Virus record (IMG/VR): IMGVR_UViG_3300030372_002234
Location: 1-64,000 of that record
Source of the DNA: a virus
Taxonomy: Duplodnaviria > Caudoviricetes
Strand: one strand, 5' to 3'
Length of the DNA: 64,000 bases
The translations under genes were made by a program, and so were the position numbers. The notes below the pieces were generated by a model that saw only the letters and a program-made list of their open reading frames with translations, did no database searches and was not told where the DNA came from. Positions 13,601-32,106 of this stretch are shown here, one piece after another (position 1 is the first letter of the stretch; every line of letters starts with the position of its first letter).

Positions 13601-16600
13601 AAAAGCCGGTTTAGAAGAAGTTTATAACGATCTTGGTAAAGTTTTTACAGTACTTAAAGACGAAGGCTTATCTAAAGAAATCCTTAAAAGCCCAGTTATG
13701 ACTGACTCTTACGGAATCGGTGTAGCAAAAATGAAAGAAAGCATTATTGAATCTTTCGGTAAACCTTCTGTTAAAGAAGAATTAATTAAAAGAGGTTTAT
13801 TTACTGAAGAAGACTACGATGCTAAAATTTACCAGTTATCTGATACTTTAGCTACTTTGTTATCTAAAGGTGTTGACTCTAAGTTAGGCGGTTGGATTAA
13901 ACAAAGCTTATTCGCTAAAGGTGGTTTAGACAACAAAAAATTAGGGGAGATTTTAAATAACTGGAGAAGAACTGAAAGCGGACAAAGAGTTAGAACAGGA
14001 GACGAGCAAAGGTCTGTCGCAGATAGTAATAACTTTATGAGCGATATGACAAGCGGCAGTACTACGGCTAACTTTAAAGCTGGTAACTCTGAAGAAATTT
14101 CTATGTTTGATAACATGTTTGACGAGGTTACACGGCAAATTTCAGTGTTAGCTGAGATTACTGGTGATGTTGAATCAGCTAAAGCTCACGTAAACAACTT
14201 AGTTAATTTAATTACTGATGACCTTAAAGGTGATAAAAACGTTGAAAAATTAATGGCTGAAGGTAAGTTTGCTGAAGCTCAGAGAGAAATTGACATTGCT
14301 TTTAATAAAATGTCAGAAGAAAGTGTTATGGTTAAAGCACTGAACAGCTACATGGCTCAGGGTTATGGGTTTGATGAAACAGCCTTTAGAGGACAGCTTG
14401 AAGCTATCTTAGGTAAAGGCAAAGCAGATACAATAAATCAAATCTTAGGTCGTTTAAATCCTCTTGCTAGACAGGCTATGAAGGGCCAGATGTTTAGGCA
14501 GTTAGCTATTTCGGCTGAAACTCGAAACTTTGTTAAAAACAACTTTGATCAAATCGCTGATAAAATTCTTCGACTGCAAGCAGAAGAATCTCCTCTTGGT
14601 CTTGGTAAGCTTGTTATGGAACCGTTGAGCGAAGAAGACATTAGACAGCGTACTATTCTACAGGCCGTTAAAGAACTATCAGAAATTTACGACTTAGAAA
14701 AATTAGAATTAGAAGTTGGTGGCGAAAGATTTAAAAATCTTACTTGGGAAGATTACTTTAAGCAGTGGGAAAAAGATAGCGGAACTGGTTTAGAAATTAG
14801 AGCAGCAGCTATAGATGCGTTTAAAAATGTTCGTTGGAAAGCAATGTTAGATGAAATCGATCAGCGTCTTGCTGAAAACAAAGAATCTAACGACGCTGAA
14901 GTCATGTCTTTAGAGATGCAGAAAGAAGCTATCGAACAAACAATGAAGATGCTTGCTCGTATTATTGATGCTACTAACGAAGGAAGACCTACGGACGCTG
15001 CTAAGAGATTAGAATTAGTTACTGAAAGCCGTAACGTGGTTAATACGGGTAGTATGCCCGGACTCTTAGGCGCACTTCCTCAGACTACTACTCGTAGATT
15101 TGAAGGCGCACCTATTCCAATTCTTAGAATGGCACAGCTTGAACAAACTGCTGAAGTTAAACAGTTAAGATCGTTAGAAAGAGGCGCACAGCAGGCTGAT
15201 ACAACCAAAGCAGTATTCAGTGATGCTGAGTTATCTCGTCCTCTTAGTCCTGAAGATCTTGCTGACGTTCAGACTTACAAGGGATCTATGTATGATGTCC
15301 CCTTAGCTTCTAAGCCTATTTACGGTTTGCAGGATAGTCCATCACCATTTATTGCAGCAGAGTTATTACAAGCTGAATTAACTAACTTTGCTAATCAGGT
15401 AGGGGGAGTAGCTAAAAAATATCTTAGTGAGGGTAATTTCTTTAAACTCTATAATACACATAGGCATTATGTTGCCGCCCAAGAAGCGATGAAAGCTGAT
15501 ACTGTTTATCGTGATATTGCTAAAAGCTTGTCAGAAAAACGTGAACAGCTTCTAAAGGATCGCCCGACATCTGATGCTTTGGATACGGAGTCTTTTCTTA
15601 ATCAGTCGGAAGACTATGTTAATCTTAAGTTAGAATTAGACAAAGCACAAGATAATGCTCTTATGGTTAGAAACGAAGTTTTAGCTATTGATGGATCATG
15701 GGCTAAAGACGTAGAAGAAAGAGCTTGGTCTATTATGTCTATGTCAGGAGAAACGTTAGAAACTGTATCTAACGGAAGAACTTGGGGAGAAGCCGTTAAT
15801 AAAACGGCATTAGATAACCAACGATCTGGTAACATGATTGCATGGTTAGCCCCTCCTGCTAAAACTCCGGGTGAGGTAATTCTTGATGGTAGTAATACTG
15901 CAAAACTTCGTTATGAAGATAAATCAGAAACAGCTATGTTACCGCGTTCTGCACACTCTGTAGATGCATCGGCTGGTTTGTACATGAGTAACTATATTCA
16001 AGTTACTGGTTGGTTTGAAGGACTTAAAAGCATCCTTAAAAGAGAGCCTACTAGTAGAGAGATTACTGTTTTTGCTCGATGGGCAGACGCTAAAGCACGT
16101 TTTGATGTTGATGAACAGAATAAACTTTTATCTAATTTTGGAAAAGAAATTGCTCCCTATAAAGATTTAACTGAAAAACAATTAACAGATATTATGGGTA
16201 GGGGGCAGGATATTGCTGCTCAAAACTTTAGAGACGCTAACAACGCAATAGCCTATATGGCTAAACCCGTAATTAGAGAACAAGTTAAAGAATCCCTCAA
16301 AGCCCAACTTGGAGATGATTTTGAAGCTAAAGTTGCAGAAAGAACCGGCGGGTTAACTCTTGAAGAATTAATGAATTTTAAACGAAAGTTAACTGACGAG
16401 AACACTACAATCTTTGTAAACCCCTTGGGAGTTGTTATTGCTCCTCACAAGGTAGTTGGAGATGGTATTGTTAATCTGACTATGCAAGAAAGAGTTTTAG
16501 CTTTACAGGGAATTCAAAATCAAACTGTTGTTGATCGCATGAGACTAGCTACAATGTTTGATAGAAAACTTCCTATGAACTCAGAGCTTTCATCTCGAAT

Positions 16601-19600
16601 GGGTGGATACGATCCGTTTACTAAGTTTAATGGAATGACTATTGATAAAGCCAGAAGGAACGCTGCTGTATTAACCGATGCCTTAGAAGTTTTACAGGGA
16701 AGAAGATCTACAGAAAAACTCAGTGTTGCTATTGATAGACGTAACGTTGTTAGAAGAGGTACTTTAACTGAAGCTCCCATGAAGTTTGTTAAATTTTCTA
16801 ATGAAATAAACGAAGAAGGAGCTAAAGACGCTAGGATGTTGTTAGCAGAAAATACTTTAGAAATGCTTCCTTTATCTGAAGACTCATTAAAGAAAATTAA
16901 TGCTCTTAGAAATACTTTTGATCCTTACGACGAAGCTGACTGGGCTAACGGTATTCAAGTTGCTATGATGGTTAGTAAAGACTCCGCTTATAACGTGTTT
17001 AAACAAAGAGTATTAGCTGAAGAAAGACTTTCAGCTAGGTCTAGAGATTCTAACCCAGACGAGTTTAATAAACAGTTTGATGCACGGTGGGAAAAAGTTA
17101 AACCAATTGTTGACGAGTTAAGAAATGAATTAAATATTCTTAATAGAGATAGCGACGTTGTTTCTAATTTCTTAAACAGAAACGATGTCTTCTTTGGTGA
17201 AACAGCTATTGATTCTACTACCCATGAAACTTTTAACAGTCTGTATTCTCAGAAAATTAAGATTGAGCAAGCTGTTCAAATGGAATTATTGAATAGAACT
17301 CTTGTTCCTGATAACACTTCGTTTGACCGAGAAGTTCAGTTTATTAAACCAATGGCTGATCTAAATGGTATTATCCCTAGATCTGACGGTACTCAACTTA
17401 AGCCTAACACTATTGATGCTCGTATTCAGGATTACCCAAAAACAGACGGTCACTTGATGTTAACGCATCGTTTAGATACGTTTGTTAATACTGGTATTTT
17501 AAATAAAGATCAAGCGTCTGTTCTTAAATTAGCTTTTTGGAATTATGATACTGAAGCATTAGGTAAGATTTTTGACCCAATGAAAACAGATAGTCCTTTA
17601 CGATTTGATGTTCTTGATGGTGTCGATTATATGGGTAAATACGAACAACTTAATAAAGCATTTACAGATGGAGTTGTACACAGAATTGGGCTTCTAAGAA
17701 ATATGTCAAGTAAATTTGATGATCCTAGTTCTTTAGGTCCGGCTGCTGTTGTTCTTGAAGAAATTGGACATGCTCTGGGTCATAAATTAGATTCTGATAC
17801 TCAGATTAACTTTATTGAACGTGTTAAGAAAATTGAGATGGCTACAATTGAAGAAGCTGAAAAACTTCTTTATGGCGAAGGTGGTCCAAAGAATAAAAAA
17901 CGTCTTGAACAATTAAGAGAAGATTTTAGACGTATTAAAGATATGGAAATTCCAGAAAACGCTGCCAAACGTACTGAGTTGTTTGGTGCTATGTTTGCTC
18001 TTAGTGGCTTACATAAAGCTAAAAATCAGTGGGATACTATTACTGACGGTGCTGCAACACAGACCGCTTTGTCTGACGCTCACTCTATTATTAAAAGTCT
18101 TGGTAAATTAGCTGATATTTCTGGCGTTGATGCTGATACCTTAAACGGTAAAAGCTTATTTACTGGTGTTGAAGAAACAATAAGATCTTCTATTAACTTA
18201 GACGTTAGATTAAACAAAAGATCTCAGCCAACAGATGAAAACCGTTTAGACGAAAACCACGGGCCTCGACATGTTGATGTTGATGTTGCAAAACGAAACG
18301 AAGACATTAGAAGAGCTAAGGTTGAAAAAGAAACTGACGATCTTATTGAACAAATCAGAGATCCAAGAACAGGTCAAGTTGATATTTCTCTTCTCGGTAA
18401 CGCTGACAAAATGAGTGTTACTGTAAGAGATACGATTATTCTTCGTGTTATGGAAGACCACGTTAAACGATCTACTTCAGGATCAAGAGTTGATACGCCT
18501 TTTTCTTCTTACCTGTCTGCAATGGCCTTTGGTAAATTAACTCCTAATCAAGTAGCTAGATACGGTGAGCTATTGTCTAGCCCGTTTGGTATGAGGCAGT
18601 TTGCTTTTGCTACTGATGGTGAAATTCCGTTAACTGCCGCAGTTGAGCATTTGTTTAACGGTGCTGATTCTCAAAGTTACTTTACTACTGGTGCTTTCCA
18701 AGACGCTATGCCTACAATTCAAGGATTGGGTCTATACTTAAGAGGTGAGTTTGAGAAAGTTATCCCAGCACTTGCTCTTCTTAAAGGACAAAACATGACC
18801 AAAGGACCGCTTGGACCTACCGGAGGAGAAACTACTCCGTGGTCCTTGTACTCTACTTTGTGGCGTGAAATGGTTATGGACTATCAAGGTAAAGATAGAG
18901 CTAAAGAAGTATTAGTAAACAAGCTTAAATCAATGAAAGATAACGATCCTGATTTTGTTAAATTCTTAGGAAACAAAAAGAAATCAGATGAGTTTTTAGA
19001 TATTATGGCTGACACTGCTGATTCTTGGGCTAATCCAAAAGAAGGTTTGTGGGCAAGTATTGTAGATTCTATGGTTCAGGCTGGAATGGTTAAAGAATCT
19101 AAACGAAACGATTTAATTGCTAATGCTGCTTATCCCATTAAGTTTAAGGACAGTATCTTTAAAAATATGACGGATATTGACGGCGATACTCCTAGAAGAG
19201 AACTTAGAAGAGCTATGGTAGACATAGTTAGAGGAAGGATGGAACACTCCGAAGATGTCGATATTGATATTCTTCAAATCGCATTAGCTGACGTATTACC
19301 AAGCCCGTCTGAAAGAAGAGGCAAGAATCTTGAAACGTATATTAACAATCTTCCTAACGAAATTCAAGCTTTATTAAAAACTCCTGAAATTAAAGGTAAC
19401 ATTGATGTGTTACTCGGGAAAATTAGAAGGGGAGACATTACTCTTAAAGATTTAGGAGATGACGTAAGAACTAGGTATATGGATACTCTTAAAAGCGATG
19501 ATTTAGTTGGTAACGAAGATCCTCGTAAAAAAGCAATGCTTCTTGAGTTGTCTGAAGAGTTTAGAAATAAATTAGCTAAATCTCAAAAGACCTCTACTTT

Positions 19601-21764
19601 AGACTTACAGCCTACAACGGCTGCTGAGTTTGTGGCTAATCGTTATATGAATAACATTGGTTCATCCAGTTATTCGTTTGCTGGTGATGCTTTCTTATCC
19701 CCTAAACAACTTTGGGAAGACCCACGTATTGCTAAGTTCTTAGAAGATGATCCTATTTCTCTTTTAGATTCTGTTAAACGAGGTACTGCTGCTCAAGCTT
19801 TCGATAGAGCTACTTACAGTAATTACTTTGGTATTAAAGGTTTTGGAATGAAAGATCTTATTGAGCTTTACAAAAAAGCGGCTAATGGCGAAAACACTCA
19901 CCATGAGTTTAATATGATGTTTATGACTAAAGATATGACTTTAGATGAGCATAAACGAACAATGACTCACGATGAGCGTCAGAAGTTTAAAGCGGGTATT
20001 GATCACATTGACAGCATGTACAAATACTCAGTAGGTACTTTATCTACTCTTGATAACCCTCATGCTGCTCCTTTCTTAAGTATTATTAACGTTATTAGTG
20101 AGTTAGGTACAGCTTTATCTATCGCCCCTCGTCTTGCTATTGCAACGGCTATCGAAGAAACGCCTATGTCTATCGGCAGCGTTCTTAAAGATAACTTGTT
20201 GGGAGCTAAGAGAGAAATGCAAGATGTTCTCGCTATAGCTAAAAGCACTAAAGATATTCATGAAACCTTAGAGGGTTTAGGCCATATTACATCTTCTGTT
20301 ATGCACCAAGCAGCAGCCCTTGCGGCTAAAATGGGTGATGACGGTTCAGGATCATACGGCGTTACAGATAAAAAGAAAATTAAACAAATCTACAAATTCT
20401 TGTCTACTGGTATGAACAAACAGGTTATGGCAGCACGAAGTTTAGGTGCCATGCAGTACGTTCATAGATTAGATAGTATTTTCTCTAATATTGCGGGAGA
20501 TATCTCAATTAAAGCAGAAGATACAGCTAGAGGCAAGAGCATGTCGTTTATGCGTCAAGGCACTGGAGGTTTCCACGTTAACGCAGATGAAATTTACTTA
20601 AGATTACAAGAACAATTTGACGGTGACTTTACTAATATCACTTTAGATGAATTTAAGAAAACAACTAAAGAATTAGGAATTGATGAAGAAATTTCAAGAG
20701 ATATTTTAGAGGCTGTTAAAATGGGCTTGTTTGAAGAAGACAAATACCAGTTCTTTAGAAACATGTGGGTTGAAAATCGTGAGCAAATTTTAAGAACGGG
20801 AGTTCCTTTTGATAAATTACGATTAAAAATTACGGCTGATTACGATCAACACGTAAGAGCAGGTAAAGATGGAGATGCTGTGCGAACTAGAAAACTACAA
20901 GCTTTGAACGCTATTAGAGAGCTTGTGTTTACTGCTTCCACTAAGTTTGCTAAACAGCCCTCATTAAGTACTCAGCCTTTAGGGGCTAGAAACGCTGGTG
21001 TGTTGGCTACCTTCTTTACACGCCTTACAACCTATGCTTCGTCTTCTGCTAATACCTTAAGAAGAGCTATGTTTGTTGGTCCGTCTACGTTTGCTGCTGC
21101 CTTTACTGCTCACATGATTACGGGATGGTTATACTATAAGCTTATTCAGCTTCAGGGTTTCCGTACTATCGAAGAAATGAAGAGAGAATTACAAAAAGAC
21201 CCAATGGGTGAATTAACTGATGCTGTAATGTCTGTTCCGTTCCTTGGAGCTAACCAAATGGTTATCAGTATGCTTCTTCAGATGATGCGCGGAGAACGAC
21301 CTGTGAACTCCAAGCCTTACGATATTGCTGCTCTTAATGCGGCTAACACTCTCTTACAGTTACCCGTAAGAGTTACAAAAGCTGTTCAAGATATTATTAA
21401 CGGTGATTGGGAAAAAGGAACGGCTAACCTTGCCCAAAGAATGCCTGTTCCCCATGCGTGGGCCTTAGCTATTGCTTTAAGAAATGCCGGAGCATTTGAA
21501 AAGGACGTTCAAATTGGTAGGCTTAGTCCTAAGTATAGAGGACAACTTAAACCACAGCCTATCCAACCTCCTGCTAGATCTGAAGTTACTAAGAACCCAA
21601 TTAATACATCTGTATTAGAACCTCAGGTTGAAGTAGGTAAACCTCAGGTAACTCCTGAGCATACCAACCCAGAGACAGGTATGACAACTCCTTCATCTGT
21701 AGAAGAAGACAGAGTTGGAGAACTTTTAAAAGAATTAGAAAGTAAAGGGTTTGAACCAGTGTAA
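7605..21764 (+). CDS. Giant internal virion protein D-like (gp16 analogue), 4719 aa, with an embedded T7-type RNA polymerase-like segment and a zincin-like motif
   Basis: Single ORF with AAAGGA RBS; hydrophobic Gly-rich segments near aa 380-420; motif A-like DADSSG (D1931), motif B-like KSPVMTDSYG (K2028/Y2036); EEIGH motif near nt 17760. Confidence 0.7.
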   Translation: MSNFTANSQWFKDYVQSIEIAEFNKERPKRNFKDYRKEQTIASRVENERFMNDFSSLVSLVPEYDYTDELADSKENLLGMFRLNFSEQTERNAARDAKRDELASLVTDEQRTVYDTTQTSIITDLKEATKNNTPLWQVMNPDDFVWKDTGEATTRLYDTTNGYSMSQYTTFTTADTYKSWFGATRRVKMGGAQRLQLNESLADSFRKIATEAKIRWDFEGPIAEANGLTIKQYIDEAIAENPDQWWFFRNIGDLFYTTEQGNQIDGRVAPWNSSMLSERLLSMTDENWTSEGGDRDKLLAIFKMDENEIGPTGIIEGDVRKFIAENPTLIEDLQNSNNGWQFISALNKRKSERVIGNYLTENNNSYGAAGFMNLLGYGFTTDPAIALDIAATVGLTIATGGGYVGVRAAAGVLQIGSKLKFGLSIAKSAKKAKHFKRMVKRAHDGKTVGRYRAASAVGKTLRGIGEATMFSRRLLPTQIVSELFFPSLKFLRHSRAMKKGDDAADAATSWWKYLKNENYLGDSVGRRMLHRSIGGAMEGVVWGSIEYGVMEDYQDRTNSLIFGNDAAAALALDRDRSGAYGHMLMFGVAFGGLGGPLIGETFTQVGKIPQGMMIGGMKMSQWADQVLSPGGQEAMGYAKAPFAKRFGARIVQGTGNAVTWLGGGNQYSVEQQYLMYKALSKISQTELLKMAEADDNGVAMTKVLQDIEDRISKYQWAASEAGLDIREAFKSAEDVMDGKPEKERTSSAFIKQVEDHLEGQEIAARGKAGFRSRVRQAVLAEFQERMRSGQDVGIMEKAMEEADPNNPPSDPEVSNLNKTVTDIQEESAKVSKEREAVVQEQARRKEGLEPDEPARTPEQIEGEFAEQVKLRDEETIAAKTEENNKAKAELKELNKSKRKGVSKKQFKKDNPRVEELETTIRETDKFLADAEEAKKVSIEEAEAKKNAELEEAKKDLQNLSDDELTERLNDLDVILGERLYELESEAYAYWQANPEKFVKYIAYFRKKVLEERLNGDTPNANGMPPMFAAIDGLEVDGAVNMIQLFAPGTYFTRDELIRVRRQLKTEDQRFITAALEGSQDGEFDLTKAEARALTTRIKDILVEEAVNKDYTSEEMRFMNAIINEPSAETIEKAFASTRVETYVNNMMIDAAKNNKVLTADDLMLYNQDPELVIETFVKAKQDLAKLMVEVRDGNYTTILRSQGKNVLDTLGEGVEGYKKSGKGITNKWKADFLAKYFSENEEFTATKAEMLEVFEVNDEFVGPTLQQPARTSEQMDLVKARIKDLLEDVVNQQAEKIKMSEVRARRKRAGYAKQREKTQNAYAKWYESSTKLSNKTKADQDKVVFQRARNKLKEMRDSINKAVDAEWENGTIKADWIARQSKRLDVQYRPNFAHARPLVKVLSMLQAHLLGTARWKRDSLSGFFVDTTITRKDLISILETAEEGYGFIANIDEIAIGARVGEGYDGEKVIQALLTKLKSTDQTLGNVLSAGFEKNLGIHFGKKLPYATDVFGSRGDLRNLMTSLKGQLEGKQAYARGKAGAGEYAGNRGDGNIDEATWNSSFNEEFITRLGYIATEGSQRARNLLAALDGLSPEKQIATALKFINEFIPEGQNKLKSFSQLGGGTEAIDWVGPKRAAQAVLSALSTERPYANKVAESYVVKGERNRPERARRLSNIDEDGIYIQHDSDPIIQRNYERATADHAMNWLLKKLDNPDLDAEARKDIYKKLQAWLENFPEQAVLNDAVRAALPQQGLSFVPRWMVTGPDADIIGKNFGTGIEGQIQYNLAMSKVNTPALMATIHDAIFVGLPSMMTKSGDVAASPSWNFKVGDDHVLRGIGFGFQTLIARKGSFEDALNHVHQIMYGYKGLVEEARASYNTMSQKRVEGLTGKTFDTNDEFVGWMAQEFPKLDTAKKEAIIKELFPALASSYMDADSSGSNIMLALVMGQDTDFGNLWKTIKEADEGNKDVYNEAHSEAVINAYKHVESYVLERIEKRDFNGKAGLEEVYNDLGKVFTVLKDEGLSKEILKSPVMTDSYGIGVAKMKESIIESFGKPSVKEELIKRGLFTEEDYDAKIYQLSDTLATLLSKGVDSKLGGWIKQSLFAKGGLDNKKLGEILNNWRRTESGQRVRTGDEQRSVADSNNFMSDMTSGSTTANFKAGNSEEISMFDNMFDEVTRQISVLAEITGDVESAKAHVNNLVNLITDDLKGDKNVEKLMAEGKFAEAQREIDIAFNKMSEESVMVKALNSYMAQGYGFDETAFRGQLEAILGKGKADTINQILGRLNPLARQAMKGQMFRQLAISAETRNFVKNNFDQIADKILRLQAEESPLGLGKLVMEPLSEEDIRQRTILQAVKELSEIYDLEKLELEVGGERFKNLTWEDYFKQWEKDSGTGLEIRAAAIDAFKNVRWKAMLDEIDQRLAENKESNDAEVMSLEMQKEAIEQTMKMLARIIDATNEGRPTDAAKRLELVTESRNVVNTGSMPGLLGALPQTTTRRFEGAPIPILRMAQLEQTAEVKQLRSLERGAQQADTTKAVFSDAELSRPLSPEDLADVQTYKGSMYDVPLASKPIYGLQDSPSPFIAAELLQAELTNFANQVGGVAKKYLSEGNFFKLYNTHRHYVAAQEAMKADTVYRDIAKSLSEKREQLLKDRPTSDALDTESFLNQSEDYVNLKLELDKAQDNALMVRNEVLAIDGSWAKDVEERAWSIMSMSGETLETVSNGRTWGEAVNKTALDNQRSGNMIAWLAPPAKTPGEVILDGSNTAKLRYEDKSETAMLPRSAHSVDASAGLYMSNYIQVTGWFEGLKSILKREPTSREITVFARWADAKARFDVDEQNKLLSNFGKEIAPYKDLTEKQLTDIMGRGQDIAAQNFRDANNAIAYMAKPVIREQVKESLKAQLGDDFEAKVAERTGGLTLEELMNFKRKLTDENTTIFVNPLGVVIAPHKVVGDGIVNLTMQERVLALQGIQNQTVVDRMRLATMFDRKLPMNSELSSRMGGYDPFTKFNGMTIDKARRNAAVLTDALEVLQGRRSTEKLSVAIDRRNVVRRGTLTEAPMKFVKFSNEINEEGAKDARMLLAENTLEMLPLSEDSLKKINALRNTFDPYDEADWANGIQVAMMVSKDSAYNVFKQRVLAEERLSARSRDSNPDEFNKQFDARWEKVKPIVDELRNELNILNRDSDVVSNFLNRNDVFFGETAIDSTTHETFNSLYSQKIKIEQAVQMELLNRTLVPDNTSFDREVQFIKPMADLNGIIPRSDGTQLKPNTIDARIQDYPKTDGHLMLTHRLDTFVNTGILNKDQASVLKLAFWNYDTEALGKIFDPMKTDSPLRFDVLDGVDYMGKYEQLNKAFTDGVVHRIGLLRNMSSKFDDPSSLGPAAVVLEEIGHALGHKLDSDTQINFIERVKKIEMATIEEAEKLLYGEGGPKNKKRLEQLREDFRRIKDMEIPENAAKRTELFGAMFALSGLHKAKNQWDTITDGAATQTALSDAHSIIKSLGKLADISGVDADTLNGKSLFTGVEETIRSSINLDVRLNKRSQPTDENRLDENHGPRHVDVDVAKRNEDIRRAKVEKETDDLIEQIRDPRTGQVDISLLGNADKMSVTVRDTIILRVMEDHVKRSTSGSRVDTPFSSYLSAMAFGKLTPNQVARYGELLSSPFGMRQFAFATDGEIPLTAAVEHLFNGADSQSYFTTGAFQDAMPTIQGLGLYLRGEFEKVIPALALLKGQNMTKGPLGPTGGETTPWSLYSTLWREMVMDYQGKDRAKEVLVNKLKSMKDNDPDFVKFLGNKKKSDEFLDIMADTADSWANPKEGLWASIVDSMVQAGMVKESKRNDLIANAAYPIKFKDSIFKNMTDIDGDTPRRELRRAMVDIVRGRMEHSEDVDIDILQIALADVLPSPSERRGKNLETYINNLPNEIQALLKTPEIKGNIDVLLGKIRRGDITLKDLGDDVRTRYMDTLKSDDLVGNEDPRKKAMLLELSEEFRNKLAKSQKTSTLDLQPTTAAEFVANRYMNNIGSSSYSFAGDAFLSPKQLWEDPRIAKFLEDDPISLLDSVKRGTAAQAFDRATYSNYFGIKGFGMKDLIELYKKAANGENTHHEFNMMFMTKDMTLDEHKRTMTHDERQKFKAGIDHIDSMYKYSVGTLSTLDNPHAAPFLSIINVISELGTALSIAPRLAIATAIEETPMSIGSVLKDNLLGAKREMQDVLAIAKSTKDIHETLEGLGHITSSVMHQAAALAAKMGDDGSGSYGVTDKKKIKQIYKFLSTGMNKQVMAARSLGAMQYVHRLDSIFSNIAGDISIKAEDTARGKSMSFMRQGTGGFHVNADEIYLRLQEQFDGDFTNITLDEFKKTTKELGIDEEISRDILEAVKMGLFEEDKYQFFRNMWVENREQILRTGVPFDKLRLKITADYDQHVRAGKDGDAVRTRKLQALNAIRELVFTASTKFAKQPSLSTQPLGARNAGVLATFFTRLTTYASSSANTLRRAMFVGPSTFAAAFTAHMITGWLYYKLIQLQGFRTIEEMKRELQKDPMGELTDAVMSVPFLGANQMVISMLLQMMRGERPVNSKPYDIAALNAANTLLQLPVRVTKAVQDIINGDWEKGTANLAQRMPVPHAWALAIALRNAGAFEKDVQIGRLSPKYRGQLKPQPIQPPARSEVTKNPINTSVLEPQVEVGKPQVTPEHTNPETGMTTPSSVEEDRVGELLKELESKGFEPV

Positions 21765-21862: not shown

Positions 21863-22069
21863 ATGGAAGAGATCATTATTACTATTGCAATCAGTATTGC
21901 TGGACCCGCTCTACTGGGCATCTTTGGGCTGATCTGGCGGTTATCCGCTAAAGTGAGCCTTCATGAAAAAATGATTGAAGCACACGACAGGCGTATCAGG
22001 GATAACCTGAGCCGCCTTCAGAAACTAGACGATAAACAATACTCTATTGTTAAAAATATTAAAATGTAA
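21863..22069 (+). CDS. Small membrane protein (holin-like)
   Basis: One N-terminal hydrophobic helix (IIITIAISIAGPALLGIFGLIW) followed by a charged coiled-coil-like tail. Confidence 0.45.
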   Translation: MEEIIITIAISIAGPALLGIFGLIWRLSAKVSLHEKMIEAHDRRIRDNLSRLQKLDDKQYSIVKNIKM

Positions 22070-22106
22070 TTTTACTGGCCCCTTGGGCCGCTGTCAGGAG
22101 TCTACC

Positions 22107-22643
22107 GTGATTAAGTACCTTGTTCTGGCTACGCTTCCGTTGTTACCTATGGATGATACCGATAACGATAATTCAATAATGGACTATCAAATCTATCAGA
22201 ATGGTCCTCGTACTGTGTACGAAGGGGCTGCTAAACTCAAGTGGGACGAAAACGTAAATGCTTGTGTTGAATACACTTTCGATCTCGTACCGGGGCGGTT
22301 GGCGGGATCTGCTATCTCTTCCGATCCGGGTCAACCGATGCTTCCTTTCGATGAGGTCTTGATCTTTGATGATGAGATCTACGTTAGTTGGGAGCGGAAC
22401 CGCACTGACTTATGGCCTACTCCTACGGAGTGCCATCGGAGATTCCACTTTTTTATTATTAAAACAGAATTTAATGCTGATGACCTCAGTGAACTCTTAA
22501 GTGACTGGGGTCCACCTTATGTGGTTGACGCTCCGTGGCCTGAGGAGGATTACACCTACCTCTCGCCTTGGGATCTTAATCTGGATACTGTGGTGGACGG
22601 GAAAGACTTAGCGATTCTTCTAGCAGGGTGGAAAATCGATTAG
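22107..22643 (+). CDS. Putative exported protein with a C-terminal dockerin/EF-hand-like repeat
   Basis: AGGAG then GTG at 22107; hydrophobic N-terminus; FNADDLSELLSDWG and WDLNLDTVVDGKDLAILLAGW. Confidence 0.6.
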   Translation: MIKYLVLATLPLLPMDDTDNDNSIMDYQIYQNGPRTVYEGAAKLKWDENVNACVEYTFDLVPGRLAGSAISSDPGQPMLPFDEVLIFDDEIYVSWERNRTDLWPTPTECHRRFHFFIIKTEFNADDLSELLSDWGPPYVVDAPWPEEDYTYLSPWDLNLDTVVDGKDLAILLAGWKID

Positions 22644-22728
22644 GGGGTCAGGAATTTACAGAGGGGTAAATATGAACAACTGTGTTCAGTTTCCCCCCTT
22701 ACCCCCCGATTCTGAAAGGAATCAAACA

Positions 22729-23316
22729 ATGTCGTATTCATTTGACTGCTTCTGTACTGCGTTCTCTATGCTTGTTCATGCTATTGCTGGTAATAAATCT
22801 ACCCTTGACGCAAAAGCCGACAAAGAAAAGGCTGCAAAGCTTGCTCTTGAATTCTTTAAGCAAATGGGACTTGATGTTATTACCCCGCTTAATCGAATTC
22901 GCGGTGCGGTCAAGCACGAGTTGCTTGGCGGCACGGCTGATTACCTTGTAATCCACTTCCCTACACAGTGGATTTGCATTAAGGGTTATGTCTATAGGGT
23001 GACTACCATCTGTGAGGTCCATCAGTATAGGATCGAGAAAGCTCAGGACGCAAGAGACTGGGCTTTCGAGGTTGAGAAGCCTTGGCGATTCCAGACTATT
23101 GTTTGGGATGGCGAGACCGGCGAACAAGTTGGCTATGAATTTGAAAGTGACTGCTACGAAGATGTCACTGATATGCAGATGATTACCCAAGCCACCAGTG
23201 ATTTTGTCGAAGCCGAAGTGCAAGAAATTGTAAAGCAAGTCACTGATGAGGTCGTTGAAGAAGTATGTGATGACCTTCGTCGCGCCGGTATTCTTGACGA
23301 TGACCGGATGAACTAA
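22729..23316 (+). CDS. Hypothetical early protein (195 aa)
   Basis: ATG 22729 follows the GAAAGGA hairpin RBS; the upstream ATG at 22672 lacks an RBS. Confidence 0.75.
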   Translation: MSYSFDCFCTAFSMLVHAIAGNKSTLDAKADKEKAAKLALEFFKQMGLDVITPLNRIRGAVKHELLGGTADYLVIHFPTQWICIKGYVYRVTTICEVHQYRIEKAQDARDWAFEVEKPWRFQTIVWDGETGEQVGYEFESDCYEDVTDMQMITQATSDFVEAEVQEIVKQVTDEVVEEVCDDLRRAGILDDDRMN

Positions 23317-23394
23317 ACTCGACTGAGCGAGTATAAACAGCCATTAGGCTCAGTGCGTCGGGCTGTACCCATAACTGGGTACGGCTCGGGTTGG
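23317..23394 (+). ncRNA. Pistol self-cleaving ribozyme, copy 1
   Basis: P1 ACTCG/CGAGT; loop ACTGAG pairs with CTCAGT (pseudoknot); ATAAACAG linker; P2 CCA/TGG; TTAGG; GCG; 12-13 bp P3; predicted cleavage at G23390|T23391. Confidence 0.9.
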
Positions 23395-23400
23395 ATTTTG

Positions 23401-23412
23401 TTTCCACTATCA
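23401..23412 (+). promoter_or_regulatory. Repeated early-region motif TTTCCACTATCA, copy 1
   Basis: Exact repeat at 23746 and 24750, 11-nt match at 25402; ends 23 nt before the ATG at 23436. Confidence 0.6.
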
Positions 23413-23435
23413 CTCGATTCTGAAAGGAATCAACT

Positions 23436-23696
23436 ATGATTGGTCACTACGATGCCGTTCGCGTTATTATCCGTGCTCTGTTGCATAAGGAGGACAGGCC
23501 GTCTGATGTGCTCCTAGAGATCCTCAATATGGCTATGACACGCCTTGCTGAAGAGCGTGAAGTGGTCTGCGAGGAAGGCCCAATTTGGGCACCCGATGGC
23601 ATGGACAGACGCTTGTCTGAAATCGAAGACAAGACATACGCGCTTCTTGACTGCATCGAAAAGCTTAAGCAGCCGTACGTTAACAGGGATTTCTGA
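23436..23696 (+). CDS. Hypothetical early protein (86 aa)
   Basis: ORF with GAAAGGA hairpin RBS. Confidence 0.75.
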   Translation: MIGHYDAVRVIIRALLHKEDRPSDVLLEILNMAMTRLAEEREVVCEEGPIWAPDGMDRRLSEIEDKTYALLDCIEKLKQPYVNRDF

Positions 23697-23745
23697 TCAC
23701 CCACAAGCGTGTCCTCTACCGGGGATGACGGCTTGTTTTGTTTTG

Positions 23746-23757
23746 TTTCCACTATCA
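23746..23757 (+). promoter_or_regulatory. Repeated motif TTTCCACTATCA, copy 2
   Basis: Exact repeat; ends 22 nt before the ATG at 23780. Confidence 0.6.
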
Positions 23758-23779
23758 CCCGTTCTCGAAAGGAGAACAC

Positions 23780-24013
23780 ATGGCTTTGTACAGCAAAAAA
23801 GAATTGGACAAGTTCAGAGAAATCGCTCGATTCTTCAAGGGATTCGATACTAGCATTCGATCTGGCTCATCGTCAGAGGCTATCGATGTTGTTATCGGAA
23901 TGGTCAACCGTGACCGTCCTGTTGTCGAGTCTCTCATTAACCCACGCAATTCATTTGAAATGCAGAGTGACAGTTGCCCTGAGACGGGCATTGTCTACGG
24001 CGATCTTTCCTAA
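23780..24013 (+). CDS. Hypothetical early protein (77 aa, MALYSKKELDKF…)
   Basis: GAAAGGAG hairpin RBS directly upstream of ATG 23780. Confidence 0.7.
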   Translation: MALYSKKELDKFREIARFFKGFDTSIRSGSSSEAIDVVIGMVNRDRPVVESLINPRNSFEMQSDSCPETGIVYGDLS

Positions 24014-24038
24014 CCTCGCTCTTGAAAGGAGCAACAAC

Positions 24039-24515
24039 ATGGGTGTTTCATTCATGCTCTACCGTACTGACACCGAAGGCAAGCACCAGCCTGTCGAAGG
24101 AGAACGCTTCGAGATCCACTGGTCCTACTCCAGTTGGGCCTACTTCAGGGATGGTGTCCTCAACGCCCTGAAGGATGCATACGTTGTGGCCACCAAGGTC
24201 CGCAACGATGCTCGTCGGTCGTGGGAGAACGAAGAGAACAAGTCGGACAAGTTCTGGCTTGACAGCTTCGAGGATGCTGCGGCTAACGTCCAGCGTCTTG
24301 CTGACCTCAAGACCTACTGGGTTGACGGCGACAACCCTGACGAGCAGGTCGATGCGGTCTGGTCCTTCGACAAGGCCAAGGTGATCGAGTGTCTCTTTGA
24401 GGCTCTGGTCATCGACTCTGAGAAGTCGGTGCATCCGTTCGTCGAACGGGACCGTCTCGCGTGGGTGCTGCGTTACCTCACGGTGAACGATGGCGATCAC
24501 CTTGTGGTTGCCTGA
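24039..24515 (+). CDS. Hypothetical early protein (158 aa, MGVSFMLYRT…)
   Basis: GAAAGGAG hairpin RBS upstream of ATG 24039; the 5' part of the called 23709 ORF overlaps another gene and is probably spurious. Confidence 0.75.
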   Translation: MGVSFMLYRTDTEGKHQPVEGERFEIHWSYSSWAYFRDGVLNALKDAYVVATKVRNDARRSWENEENKSDKFWLDSFEDAAANVQRLADLKTYWVDGDNPDEQVDAVWSFDKAKVIECLFEALVIDSEKSVHPFVERDRLAWVLRYLTVNDGDHLVVA

Positions 24516-24521
24516 ACCCAC

Positions 24522-24600
24522 ACTCGTCTGAGCGAGTATAAATAGACGTTAGGCTCAGAGCGGCAGGCCGCACCCTTCACTGGGTGTTGGTCTGCGTCGT
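24522..24600 (+). ncRNA. Pistol self-cleaving ribozyme, copy 2
   Basis: P1 ACTCG/CGAGT; loop TCTGAG pairs with CTCAGA; ATAAATAG linker; P2 ACG/CGT; TTAGG; GCG; P3 GCAGGCC-G-CACCC/GGGTG-TT-GGTCTGC; predicted cleavage at G24596|T24597. Confidence 0.9.
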
Positions 24601-24749
24601 GAAAGGAGATCAAGGATGGTCTCAGCTAAGGAAGGCACTTTCCCTTATTGGATGTTTAACCCAGACGGCCCTTGCGGGGGCCAGCCCCTCACGGGGCAGT
24701 CTGGGGTACGTGACCCTTCGATCCTTGCGGGTAGTTTCCCCGCAGGGAG

Positions 24750-24761
24750 TTTCCACTATCA
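24750..24761 (+). promoter_or_regulatory. Repeated motif TTTCCACTATCA, copy 3
   Basis: Exact repeat; ends 21 nt before the ATG at 24783; preceded by a 9-bp hairpin (24723-24746). Confidence 0.6.
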
Positions 24762-24782
24762 TGCTCTCGAAAGGAGCAACCC

Positions 24783-25301
24783 ATGTCTTATTCTGCATCG
24801 TTCATGTTCGATCACTGTCGCCTCATCTACAACGTTCAGGGTGAGGACGGCTATCTGTTCAACATCAACACCGTGACTGGCAAGCTGGCTGAGTTCTGCT
24901 GGCTGAAGCCCTCCACGGTGGAGTTCGAGGTGAACAACATCAGTGATGATACCGTCGAACTCCAGCGGACCAAGCCGAGAGCCGTGAAGCTCAAGGTCCA
25001 GCCTCTCCGCAAGCTGGAGTACTTCTTCAACTGGTGTACCAACGAGCCGCTGCCCTGCGCTGCCCGTGCCATCCACACGCTGCGGAGCAAGAAGGACAGC
25101 ATTCGCTTCGTTACTGCTGGCCCTGTCGGCGTTCCGGGTGGTCTTCAGGTCTGCTTCCGTCAGTCTCCCGGTCCTGTGACCGAGTGGCAGCCCTTCACGG
25201 CTGGCTACGGTGGCGAGTGGCTCCCAATGAAGCTGGAGCACATGTCTCGCACGTTCAACCTGTGGCAGGACCGCATCCTGAAGGAAGCCTTGGCTGACTA
25301 A
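24783..25301 (+). CDS. Hypothetical early protein (172 aa)
   Basis: ORF with hairpin RBS and C/G-ending codon bias. Confidence 0.75.
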   Translation: MSYSASFMFDHCRLIYNVQGEDGYLFNINTVTGKLAEFCWLKPSTVEFEVNNISDDTVELQRTKPRAVKLKVQPLRKLEYFFNWCTNEPLPCAARAIHTLRSKKDSIRFVTAGPVGVPGGLQVCFRQSPGPVTEWQPFTAGYGGEWLPMKLEHMSRTFNLWQDRILKEALAD

Positions 25302-25319
25302 TCGGTCTTTGCTGCGGTA

Positions 25320-25383
25320 CGAAGACCGAAGAGCCACGACCGAAGGCCCGAAGTCACTCAAACCGAAGACCGAAGGCCCGAAG
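25320..25383. repeat. Array of seven CGAAG units, including a duplicated GACCGAAGGCCCGAAG
   Basis: CGAAG at 25320, 25327, 25341, 25349, 25364, 25371, 25379. Confidence 0.8.
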
Positions 25384-25401
25384 ACCCGTCCTTGCGGGTA
25401 G

Positions 25402-25412
25402 TTCCACTATCA
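25402..25412 (+). promoter_or_regulatory. Repeated motif TTCCACTATCA, copy 4
   Basis: Preceded by TCCTTGCGGGTAG, which is also present at 24722. Confidence 0.5.
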
Positions 25413-25623
25413 CCGGACTCGCATAGAGGCATTCCCCGCGTGTAGTCCCCGCCAGAAGCCGTAGAATCCCGACTGCGGTCCTCGCGTGGACTCGATGAGT
25501 TCCTCCCCGTTTACTTTTACTGTCCGTTAGGCGGCCTCTCCGGCCCTCTCACGGCATTTCCGGGTTCACCTGTTCGTATGGTGGCCCCTGCTTATTTCTC
25601 TCCGTTTCTCGAAAGGAAACAAC

Positions 25624-25911
25624 ATGTCGAAGATTAGATTGGTCGTTCGTTCCACTGCGGAGCTTAACGAAGAAATCGCAAAGAAGAAGGAAGCCCTTCT
25701 CAACGTCCGGGCAGACCTCGAAGCAGCACGGAAGCGTATGGACAGCCTCAGGCGTGATTTCCATGAGGCCCAGATGGATGTCAGGACTTTCACGGATCTC
25801 AAGGACACCTTCGAGGAGCGTCTCGGTGAGCTTCAGTTCTTCCTTGGTCAGAACGACATCTACGAACAGATGGTCGATCAGGGCATCATTGCCGAGCCGG
25901 TTGAAGATTAA
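25624..25911 (+). CDS. Hypothetical coiled-coil early protein (95 aa)
   Basis: Hairpin RBS GAAAGGA; heptad-like charged helix. Confidence 0.75.
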   Translation: MSKIRLVVRSTAELNEEIAKKKEALLNVRADLEAARKRMDSLRRDFHEAQMDVRTFTDLKDTFEERLGELQFFLGQNDIYEQMVDQGIIAEPVED

Positions 25912-25922
25912 ACTAACCCAAC

Positions 25923-25949
25923 ACTGCTGGGCATCAGTATAAACTGCCC
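25923..25949 (+). ncRNA. Minimal H-type pseudoknot resembling the pistol P1/pseudoknot scaffold
   Basis: ACTG/CAGT stem; loop GGGCA pairs with TGCCC; GT-ATAAA linker as in both pistols; lies just after a stop codon. Confidence 0.5.
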
Positions 25950-25973
25950 TTTCATTTTCAGAAAGGCATTCAA

Positions 25974-26234
25974 ATGCTTGAAGAGTTTCGTGTCTTTGTT
26001 TACGATGACTTCGTTAAGGCACGGGCTGGTCATCCAGCTATCCGTGTCTGGAATTTTGAAACCGAAGAAAAGGCTCTTAAGGTAGCCAAGGAGCTATGCG
26101 AAAAGTTTAACGAAGAGAAGGATTACATGAAGAATCTCTGTCGTTATTCTGTTAAGGTGCATCGCTTTCACGGATTTAACCTGAAGTTTAGAACGGAGCA
26201 TCCCTTGTTTAATTCATTAGAGGAGTACAAATGA
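25974..26234 (+). CDS. Hypothetical protein (86 aa)
   Basis: GAAAGG RBS and ORF. Confidence 0.7.
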   Translation: MLEEFRVFVYDDFVKARAGHPAIRVWNFETEEKALKVAKELCEKFNEEKDYMKNLCRYSVKVHRFHGFNLKFRTEHPLFNSLEEYK

Positions 26235-26500
26235 TCGAAGAAGAGTACGACTACCGTGATCACCATGTGGTGGTTGAGATTGAATTGATGGAGGACAACC
26301 AGAAGATCTGGTACTTAGTGACCTGTCCTGACGGGGAAGAAAGGACTGTAGATGTCTCCCCTTACGGTAATCAGAATGAAGTCGTAAAGAAATGGATTGA
26401 TATGTTCTATCAACACGGTGAGTATTTTAGCCGTATTGGTATTGGTCCCTTGACTATGTATGATTTAGAGTTAATTGATATTTCTCAGAAGATTTCCTAA
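26231..26500 (+). CDS. Hypothetical protein (89 aa)
   Basis: GAGGAG RBS; ATGA overlap with the previous gene. Confidence 0.7.
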   Translation: MIEEEYDYRDHHVVVEIELMEDNQKIWYLVTCPDGEERTVDVSPYGNQNEVVKKWIDMFYQHGEYFSRIGIGPLTMYDLELIDISQKIS

Positions 26501-26501
26501 A

Positions 26502-26535
26502 GGGGTCCGCCAAGGTGGCGGGCCTCTGTTTATTT
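26502..26535 (+). terminator. Intrinsic terminator-like hairpin
   Basis: GGGGTCCGCCA-AGG-TGGCGGGCCTC (11 bp including G·U pairs) followed by TGTTTATTT. Confidence 0.55.
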
Positions 26536-31035: not shown

Positions 31036-31108
31036 GCCCTCATAGCTCAGTTGGTAGAGCATTCGGCTTTTAACCGATCGGTCGCAGGTTCGAGTCCTGC
31101 TGAGGGTA
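31036..31108 (+). tRNA. tRNA-Lys(UUU)
   Basis: Acceptor GCCCTCA/TGAGGGT, D-arm GCTC/GAGC, anticodon loop CTTTTAA, T-loop TTCGAGT; CCA not encoded. Confidence 0.95.
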
Positions 31109-31223: not shown

Positions 31224-31742
31224 ATGGATGAAATGTATACGTTTCATAATGAAATTGCTTTAAGAGAAAATGCTTCGGCTGCTTCGGTAGCCTCGCTGGC
31301 AGCAGTCGGGAAGGATTACTTTACGTCCATAGCGGGAGGACTTCTCACCCTCGGTGAAATCCACGCTCCACTATCACAGACCCATAAGTTTATCAGCCGT
31401 TGCTCCGAGCTTAACTATGAAAACGAAATCAAAACTCACTTGCTTAATCACTACAAGATCCCCGGATGGGGTTCATCTTTTGTCAAGGGTAATCCAGACT
31501 CGGTGTTCTTTGCAGTTGACTGTATGCTTGAAGGAAGTAAAACACAAGAAAGTCAAAAGAGGGTAACTGAATTTCTACACGAAAAAGGATTAATGTTATA
31601 TCCAAACGCTTCCTACTATACTGTAGCATGTTGCATTGAATCGGGAATCCCTATCGAAAAAGCAGCGTTCCATCTTGTTAATGCTAGGCTCCCTGCTTGG
31701 ACAGAATTGTGGATGTTGACTAAAGAAAAGAAACTTCGGTAG
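31224..31742 (+). CDS. Citrate synthase/citryl-CoA lyase-like protein (degenerate, 172 aa)
   Basis: ENAS…SIAGGLLTLGEIH, KIPGWGS…KGNPD, LYPNASYY…GIP and ARLPAW parallel the citrate synthase C-terminal motifs (NAS…LxGxLHG, IxGFGH…KxxDPR, LYPNVDFY…LGIP, ARxxGW). Confidence 0.65.
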   Translation: MDEMYTFHNEIALRENASAASVASLAAVGKDYFTSIAGGLLTLGEIHAPLSQTHKFISRCSELNYENEIKTHLLNHYKIPGWGSSFVKGNPDSVFFAVDCMLEGSKTQESQKRVTEFLHEKGLMLYPNASYYTVACCIESGIPIEKAAFHLVNARLPAWTELWMLTKEKKLR

Positions 31743-31806
31743 CTCAGTTGGATAGAGCAGTTGACTTCTAATCAACAGGTCGAAGGTTCGAGTCCTTCCC
31801 GAAGTG
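31733..31806 (+). tRNA. tRNA-Arg(UCU)
   Basis: Acceptor ACTTCGG/CCGAAGT, anticodon stem GTTGA/TCAAC with loop CTTCTAA, T-loop TTCGAGT. Confidence 0.95.
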
Positions 31807-31810
31807 TAAT

Positions 31811-31895
31811 GGCTCTGTGGCGGAATTGGCAGACGCAACGGACTTAAAATCCGTCGAGGGTAAACCTCATGGGGGTTCGAGTCCCCCCGGAGCTA
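31811..31895 (+). tRNA. tRNA-Leu(UAA)
   Basis: Acceptor GGCTCTG/CGGAGCT, anticodon loop CTTAAAA, long variable arm, T-arm GGGGG-TTCGAGT-CCCCC. Confidence 0.93.
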
Positions 31896-31911
31896 TTAGA
31901 AAGGAGTATTT

Positions 31912-32106
31912 ATGTACGGTAAAGGCGATAAATACAGAGACGTTGATAAGAAAAAGTACGATGAACAGTATGAAAAGATTTTTGGAAAGAAAAAATTTAA
32001 CATCATGAGTGACAAGGAGTCCAATGACAGTATGGGAAACGTACACAAAAGAAGAAAAGACAAGGCTAACAAATCTTCAGTTAGCAAACGAAGACAAAGC
32101 CGCTAA
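31912..32106 (+). CDS. Small basic hypothetical protein (GKGDKYR…YEKIFG type)
   Basis: AGAAAGGAG RBS; the C-terminal part overlaps the RNAP gene start. Confidence 0.55.
   Translation: MYGKGDKYRDVDKKKYDEQYEKIFGKKKFNIMSDKESNDSMGNVHKRRKDKANKSSVSKRRQSR

Follow-up and report, generated by a model that had tools for sequence, protein, structure and literature searches.

The question raised by this locus is whether the RNA that starts at position 23317, directly behind the stop codon of a small phage gene, is a self-cleaving pistol ribozyme, and if so what such an element might be doing there. The window analysed here is a stretch of 64,000 nucleotides (positions 1 to 64,000 of IMG/VR record IMGVR_UViG_3300030372_002234), and all positions below refer to it unless a contig is named. 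An Rfam cmscan of the entire window, on both strands and against 4227 families, returns a match to Pistol (RF02679) at 23317-23395 with 65.4 bits against a gathering score of 34.5 and an E value of 1.2e-9, and the alignment spans model positions 1-68 of 68 with zero non-canonical pairs flagged. A chance match is excluded because of this score, this E value and the complete coverage of the model. The original prediction had read a pistol at 23317-23394, and it is borne out: the bases are as it wrote them, and the elements that it claimed, including the GCG and the G that precedes the pseudoknot strand, are all in place in the Rfam alignment and in our parse. The one adjustment concerns the P3 hairpin (23358-23389, + strand), given there as 12 bp plus flanking bases and recounted here as 14 pairs, a number that, by fold and parse, takes in a closing U-G and an A-U pair at the top; this is bookkeeping only. 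The cleavage site proposed earlier, between G23390 and U23391, coincides with the conserved G-U junction between P3 and P2 and is retained as the predicted site, and the distance of 45 nt from U23391 to the ATG at 23436 is correct. We regard the interpretation of 23317-23394 as a genuine canonical pistol ribozyme as supported, and self-cleavage would be expected of an RNA with this sequence and fold.

The window holds a second copy of the element, and we refer to the two as pistols A and B (Table 1). In both copies P1 (5 of 5 pairs) and the pseudoknot (6 of 6) form, UUAGG and GCG are found, and the P3 and P2 elements are joined on the 3' side by a two-nucleotide G-U junction (G23390-U23391 and G24596-U24597), which is the length that the family rule gives (PMC4604425). 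All upper-case positions of the Rfam consensus agree, except where the pseudoknot of copy A covaries and at the first base of P3 in copy B (U42 to G). The UUAGG of pistol A contains the active-site purine, followed by a G, and the first G of its GCG is the equivalent of the proposed general base; these residue roles come from published work on the pistol core, according to which the active-site position tolerates a purine, either A or G (PMC6154101). The cleavage site is defined as in earlier studies (PMC4604425, PMC6154101). The P2 of pistol A has 3 bp and a G-A mismatch, a form common in our family sample, where an outer G-A or G-G mismatch of P2 is typical.

Table 1. Features of the pistol region and the phage RNA polymerase gene, with predicted elements as assigned from the Rfam alignment, the parse and the fold.
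Feature	Position	Strand	Details
g1	22107-22643
g2	22729-23316	+	195 aa, no known family; stop TAA 23314-23316 adjoins pistol A
Pistol A, P1 hairpin	23317-23332	+	5 bp ACUCG/CGAGU, 23317-23321 with 23328-23332; Rfam alignment, parse
Pistol A, P1 loop ACUGAG (pseudoknot 5' strand)	23322-23327	+	exact complement of CUCAGU 23349-23354; six Watson-Crick pairs
Pistol A, linker AUAAACAG	23333-23340	+	fits Rfam consensus AUAAAuA, then G
Pistol A, P2 5' strand CCA	23341-23343	+	pairs with UGG 23392-23394
Pistol A, core UUAGG, CUCAGU and GCG	23344-23357	+	UUAGG 23344-23348, CUCAGU 23349-23354, GCG 23355-23357; Rfam consensus
Pistol A, P3 hairpin	23358-23389	+	14 bp, loop UAAC; fold
Pistol A, predicted scissile G/U junction	23390-23391	+	two-nucleotide P3/P2 junction; Rfam alignment
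Pistol A, P2 3' strand UGG and A	23392-23395	+	A makes the G-A outer mismatch
g3 leader	23396-23435	+	U-rich run, box TTTCCACTATCAC at 23402-23413, hairpin GAUUC-UGAAAG-GAAUC bearing the SD; repeat families D2, D4
g3	23436-23696	+	86 aa; first gene past the predicted pistol A cut; GAAAGGA Shine-Dalgarno (SD)
g4	23780-24013	+	77 aa; SD-based start
g5	24039-24515	+	158 aa, a length confirmed by homologs of 155-167 aa
Pistol B	24522-24600	+	Rfam, parse, fold
Pistol B, P1	24522-24526 with 24533-24537	+
Pistol B, pseudoknot	24527-24532 with 24554-24559	+
Pistol B, P2 ACG/CGU	24546-24548 with 24598-24600	+
Pistol B, GCG	24560-24562	+
Pistol B, P3	24563-24595	+	7 bp + 5 bp around a bulge
Pistol B, predicted cut	G24596/U24597	+	19 nt before the g6 ATG
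SD GAAAGGAG and g6	24601-24876	+	ATG at 24616; 86 aa here, 57 aa in L124
g7	24783-25301
Single-subunit RNA polymerase gene	32009-34588	+

The second Pistol match in the same cmscan lies at 24522-24572 (49.2 bits, cut-off 34.5, E 6e-6), with the 3' half misaligned, P3 truncated and four bad pairs flagged. The match stops at 24572 because the long and bulged P3 of this copy is truncated, and parsing by the family rules yields a complete pistol at 24522-24600, beginning 6 nt past the g5 stop codon and ending its P2 1 nt before the SD. The differences between the two copies are compensatory: the first pseudoknot pair is A-U in A and U-A in B, and P2 is CCA/UGG in A and ACG/CGU in B; the closing pair of P3 is U-G in one copy and G-C in the other. 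By Rfam these are the only two pistols in the complete 72.9-kb phage record, and a permissive Rfam scan of the whole window (E up to 5) finds no further ribozyme of any class. The two pistols lie on the same strand and bracket g3-g5 in the window, and g4-g5 in the related contigs L122 and L124-L127.

The source record is a 72,875-bp IMG/VR virus, rated 100% complete, with its large genes all on the + strand. It carries genes for a large terminase, a primase-helicase, a DNA polymerase, a ribonucleotide reductase, and portal, capsid and tail proteins, encodes two very large proteins of 1,524 and 4,719 aa, and at 21.8-31 kb contains small ORFan genes in a row. Because the phage RNA polymerase is about 25% identical at most to that of any cultured phage, and near-identical DNA is present in Tara Oceans and other marine assemblies, we place the carrier, judging by its gene content, in an uncultured marine phage lineage with T7-like modules. 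The original prediction also spoke of early genes, and we rate this setting as plausible given that the small ORFan run lies between the virion-protein block and the RNA polymerase gene (from 32009); by analogy with T7-like gene order, then, the pistols would sit in a presumed early region. Gene starts within it were chosen by ribosome-binding site and homolog lengths. Orthologs of g4 and g5 are found in L122, L124 and L128, and searches of Pfam, PHROGs and the ESM Atlas give no known family or function for g1-g10, while a megablast of 22000-26000 against cultured phages gives no match. Paralogy of the two 86-aa ORFs downstream of the pistols was considered and rejected on comparison.

Several other features of this part of the genome may be recorded here. 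Genes for tRNA-Lys(UUU) at 31036-31108, tRNA-Arg(UCU) at 31733-31806 and tRNA-Leu(UAA) at 31810-31896 lie just upstream of the RNA polymerase gene and are kept in relatives. A strong terminator-like hairpin of 12 pairs (8 of them G-C) with a U-rich tail occupies 26501-26527, beginning at the first base past the stop of ORF 26231-26500. Some 300 nt of non-coding DNA at 25320-25627 are 88-94% identical to L122, L124 and L183, a conservation above that of the neighbouring genes, and contain a 16-nt direct repeat, GACCGAAGGCCCGAAG, present twice (at 25338 and 25368), together with an CCACTATCAC box. The 4,719-aa protein, encoded by ORF 7605-21764, has no Pfam or PHROG family and just 10 homolog clusters among 1.84 billion representatives, all of them giant proteins. 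Its residues 1701-2500 give a sub-threshold Pfam match to RNA_pol (PF00940, E 0.0037), and motifs of the form D-x-D, K...Y..G and H-D are invariant in its family (H1801-D1802, D1931/D1933, K2028, Y2036, G2039). Phmmer and profile searches of PDB sequences give no match, BLASTP against the phage's own polymerase gives a motif-B-like match of 9/30 residues alone (E 0.095), and the AlphaFold model of residues 1701-2500 is poor (mean pLDDT 50.5). An RNA polymerase module in this protein is unproven.

The same two ribozymes are borne by marine relatives among Tara, ENA and JGI contigs, which were reached solely through homologs of g5 and a metagenome pattern scan. The ortholog set consists of L122, L124-L128, L143, L145, L152, L165 and L183: both copies are present in L122 (a 69.8-kb contig), L124 (71.4 kb) and L125-L127, copy A in L145 and L152, copy B in L128 and L183 (and also in L123), and a diverged copy B in L143 and L165. 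Two ortholog-specific patterns have zero matches in IMG/VR. Relatives found via the RNA polymerase (L003-L011 and G001-G005) have no pistol, and these include the complete genomes G001, with a polymerase 96% identical to that of the window phage, and G002 (70%); L128 is 99% identical to the window over 23698-25583 and yet is without copy A. Since close relatives such as these do without the pistol, or without copy A, the element is dispensable.

Where the pistols are present, their pairing is preserved. All 28 pairs of copy A are kept in every ortholog, with 2 double changes, one at the inner pair of P2 (A-U to G-C, in L124-L127) and one at a P3 pair that is either C-G or U-A. The orthologs of copy B likewise preserve every one of its 27 pairs and show 6 double changes (2 in P2 and 4 in P3); this result is equalled by only 1 of 500 column shuffles, and controls with slid partners are 32-49% paired. 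Between the window and L122 or L124, copy B is 97.5-98.7% identical, compared with 59-90% for g4, g5 and g6. The pairing, the compensatory changes and an identity above that of the flanking genes together look like selection on the RNA fold.

The position of pistol A relative to g2 was a further point of the original prediction, and the ORF list agrees that the ribozyme begins at the base after the upstream stop codon. We considered whether this abutment is a special design of this copy and rejected the idea, as it is one of three frame-dependent outcomes and is common across the family. The 5' part of the pistol contains TGA at positions 8-10 and TAA at 18-20, and therefore two frames are closed by the ribozyme and the third is open. 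The g2 of the window reads in this open frame and has its own TAA directly before ribozyme base 1; an unrelated upstream gene stops at the ribozyme TGA in L124, and the upstream gene of L122 and that of L165 stop at the ribozyme TAA. In a set of 103 other phage pistols that have sufficient sequence on their 5' side, 18 have the end of the upstream ORF at +10, 14 at +1, 3 at 0 and 2 at +20. Stop-codon abutment is thus one of the forms that a generally tight packing takes. The upstream genes of the window, L122 and L124 (195, 181 and 113 aa) are mutually unrelated, and homology of the window to L122 and L124 begins at 23316, where the g2 stop ends and one base short of the ribozyme. In place of the block g2-pistol A-g3, L128 and G001 have a single small unrelated gene, and g3 is missing from its position in L122. 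In L124 a gene at 3302-3643 is 34% identical to g3 (23436-23696 in the window) and lies upstream of pistol A there, whereas g3 lies downstream here, and genes have therefore been shuffled around a fixed ribozyme.

Comparison of the junctions themselves shows a second kind of element. Before g4 there is pistol A in L122 and L124-L127, and a hairpin with a U-run in the window, L128 and G001. This hairpin has the form CAAGC...GCUUG followed by UUUUGUUUU, at 23703-23745 in the window, 425-465 in L008 and 1694-1730 in L006, with compensatory changes inside it, and at 23703-23745 it looks like a terminator or processing hairpin. Both kinds of junction precede the same box, (U-rich)CCACTATCAY, and then a small hairpin that carries the ribosome-binding site, and from this shared arrangement the pistol and the plain hairpin look exchangeable. 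Only early regions of this phage clade have the box, in most cases about 32 nt upstream of an ATG; it occurs at 23402-23413, 23747-23758, 24751-24762 and 25402-25413, and also at 31366-31377, and in L006 within 1733-2876 and L008 within 468-1949. The repeated box (TTTCCACTATCAC / CCACTATCA) could be a promoter, in which case g3 may not depend on the cut, and the transcripts that contain pistol A would change. A scan of the early region for sigma-70 promoters finds no more of them than in shuffled sequence. We also observe that the CACTAT core of the box resembles positions -7 to -2 of T7-type promoters. As a separate observation, six early genes have their SD partly buried in a small hairpin whose loop and 3' arm contain GAAAGG, at 22708-22723, 23416-23431, 23761-23777, 24018-24032, 24763-24777 and 25604-25620, and the stems vary with the pairing kept.

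The explanation that best accounts for these observations jointly, and one that we hold to be probable, is that the pair of pistols in the early region self-cleaves and so separates neighbouring early cistrons. In this model the transcribed RNA would fold into the P1 hairpin, the 6-bp pseudoknot that joins the P1 loop to the P2-P3 junction, the short P2 and the long P3, and would then cut itself at the G-U junction, G23390/U23391 in A and G24596/U24597 in B. The upstream message would end in the compact body of the ribozyme with a 2',3'-cyclic phosphate, and the downstream message would carry a 5'-OH at its start, which lies 45 nt upstream of the next start codon in A and 19 nt in B; the two cuts together would release a 1,206-nt g3-g4-g5 RNA. 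The role that we envisage is a protein-independent separation of cistrons that needs no host nuclease, presumably the same job as that of the hairpin and U-run junctions of the sister phages, and its likely consequences would include effects on the stability of mRNA ends and on access to the downstream ribosome-binding site.

A different emphasis, to which we assign a minor but appreciable probability, is that the ribozyme serves mainly as a 5'-UTR device, with a short 5'-OH leader that switches on or stabilises the translation of g3 and g6, and with separation from the upstream message secondary. Each copy keeps its downstream neighbours (the leader box for A, the SD and ATG for B) as the upstream genes are swapped, the predicted cut of pistol B is 19 nt from the ATG with the end of P2 1 nt before the SD, and self-cleavage that enables downstream translation has been shown in eukaryotic RNA viruses (PMC13725137). 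However, bacterial ribosomes initiate internally on polycistronic RNA and do not need a free 5' end, g4 has a pistol in some phages and a plain hairpin in others and is served equally by either, and what L165 shares past the pistol is limited to the first few codons. The swapping of upstream genes also bears on the idea, which we think unlikely as a full account, that the element is a joint at the DNA level, where an ultra-conserved 41-nt core acts as a target for recombination, the built-in stops close incoming ORFs and cleavage adds little to fitness. The breakpoint of homology at 23316, one base before the 5' edge of the ribozyme, is what such a joint would leave, as are three unrelated upstream genes that end at the TAA just before it, at TGA 8-10 or at TAA 18-20, the similar ORF ends (+10, +1 and 0 in 18, 14 and 3 cases) among the 103 other phage pistols, and a core that is at least 90% identical in unrelated phages. 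A role in DNA only would leave the compensatory changes in P2 and P3 and the conservation of the 3' half without explanation, and the recombination joint is compatible with self-cleavage between cistrons rather than exclusive of it.

A broader proposal, which we consider distinctly improbable as a whole, concerns this marine phage clade: the pistol would be a swappable punctuation cassette, functionally equivalent to a terminator-like hairpin, that provides polymerase-independent 3' ends and insulation among early genes, each of which may be driven from a CCACTATCA box, perhaps by an RNA polymerase module hidden within the virion protein of 4,719 aa, and its invariant 5' core would double as a recombination joint with stops in two frames. 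It is very unlikely that the P3 hairpin and the U-rich run are simply an intrinsic terminator or 3'-end stabiliser to which the ribozyme chemistry is incidental. A terminator scan does flag 23358-23389 with the tail GUUGGAUUUU, and in L006, L008 and the window (23703-23745) the sister junctions have a hairpin with compensatory changes that precedes UUUUGUUUU and the same box, but the U-run of pistol A begins 7 nt past the stem, which is poor for intrinsic termination, and pistol B is without a U-run; the strict conservation of P1, the pseudoknot, the linker, the GCG and P2, and the compensatory changes in P2, would go unexplained. That the elements are inactive relics or chance look-alikes of a pistol we find scarcely credible: the life of close relatives without a pistol would accord with a relic, but E values of 1e-9 and 6e-6 in a search of the whole window with all of Rfam, core positions that are all intact, and purifying selection with compensatory changes across relatives argue against it.

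In the wider pistol family, a pattern for the 5' core is found in 108 other IMG/VR contigs, which share just this core of about 41 nt with the window. A core that is 88-90% identical is present in 46 cultured phages (Bacillus, Gordonia, Curtobacterium, Microbacterium and Microcystis phages), and again nothing beyond the core is shared. Over 84 unique phage copies the pseudoknot covaries, with three to six pair types at each of pairs 1-5, GCG is present in 82, and the linker variants are all AUAAANA; the GU junction is present in 65 of 82 parsed copies, the two of the window counted. A large set of marine metagenome contigs (L133, L134, L139, L141, L151, L153-L155, L173-L175, L178, L181, L182, L185 and L186) has the same 5' core and a variable P3, with a common downstream leader, GGAAATTCGGAGAGG or GAAAATTTGGAAGGG, which suggests another phage group in which the pistol travels with its leader. 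In about a hundred phage copies the ribozyme is packed against the upstream stop and often itself provides that stop.

Pistols are already known to be associated with phages (PMC4604425, PMC6154101) and to cleave at this junction (PMC4604425), and the biological purpose of pistols, and of most self-cleaving ribozymes of bacteria and phages, is unsettled (PMC6765202). The pair in the window belongs to the class RF02679 (Weinberg et al. 2015; Harris et al. 2015, PMC4604425; structures 5K7C and 5KTJ, reviewed in PMC6154101) by a full-length match to its covariance model and shares with it P1, the 6-bp pseudoknot, the AUAAA linker, the purine-G, GCG, P3, the G-U junction and P2, as well as an intergenic location in phages. 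It differs structurally by the long P3 alone (14 bp in A, 7+5 bp with a bulge in B). Both pistols in phages and phage genes flanked by ribozymes have been published, and there is no new chemistry here; the novelty is the carrier, since the known range of pistols now takes in an uncultured lineage of marine phages that has T7-like genes. These near-identical marine phages also amount to a natural experiment, in which the same slot holds a pistol, a hairpin with a U-run, or neither, and the downstream genes are the same. Comparing RNA ends, half-lives and expression across these variants of the slot could reveal what benefit self-cleavage brings to the phage.

In T7 the long early transcript is cut at RNase III sites upstream of the RNA polymerase gene, as established by Dunn and Studier, and this cutting gives shorter messages with a hairpin at each 3' end. 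The pistols resemble these sites as structured intergenic elements of an early region, a likeness that is one of analogy alone and not of membership; in contrast to the T7 sites, a pistol would be cut by the RNA itself and not by a host protein, and would leave a 2',3'-cyclic phosphate and a 5'-OH. Ribozymes in the UTRs of eukaryotic RNA viruses, whose self-cleavage enables translation, are also situated a few nucleotides upstream of an ORF start and coupled to the expression of that ORF, although that system concerns cap-independent translation in eukaryotes, RNA genomes and mainly hammerheads, unlike the pistols of the window (PMC13725137). A similar arrangement is that of the clusters of hammerhead ribozymes in prophages (Perreault et al. 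2011, PMC3088659), which lie on either side of single genes or short gene blocks and in vitro process long transcripts. Here as there, two motifs on the same strand bracket a short block of small phage genes of varying identity, and transcript processing is the hypothesis in both cases, whereas the ribozymes described here are of the pistol class, number just two, and belong to a lytic-type, T7-like genome rather than to prophages.
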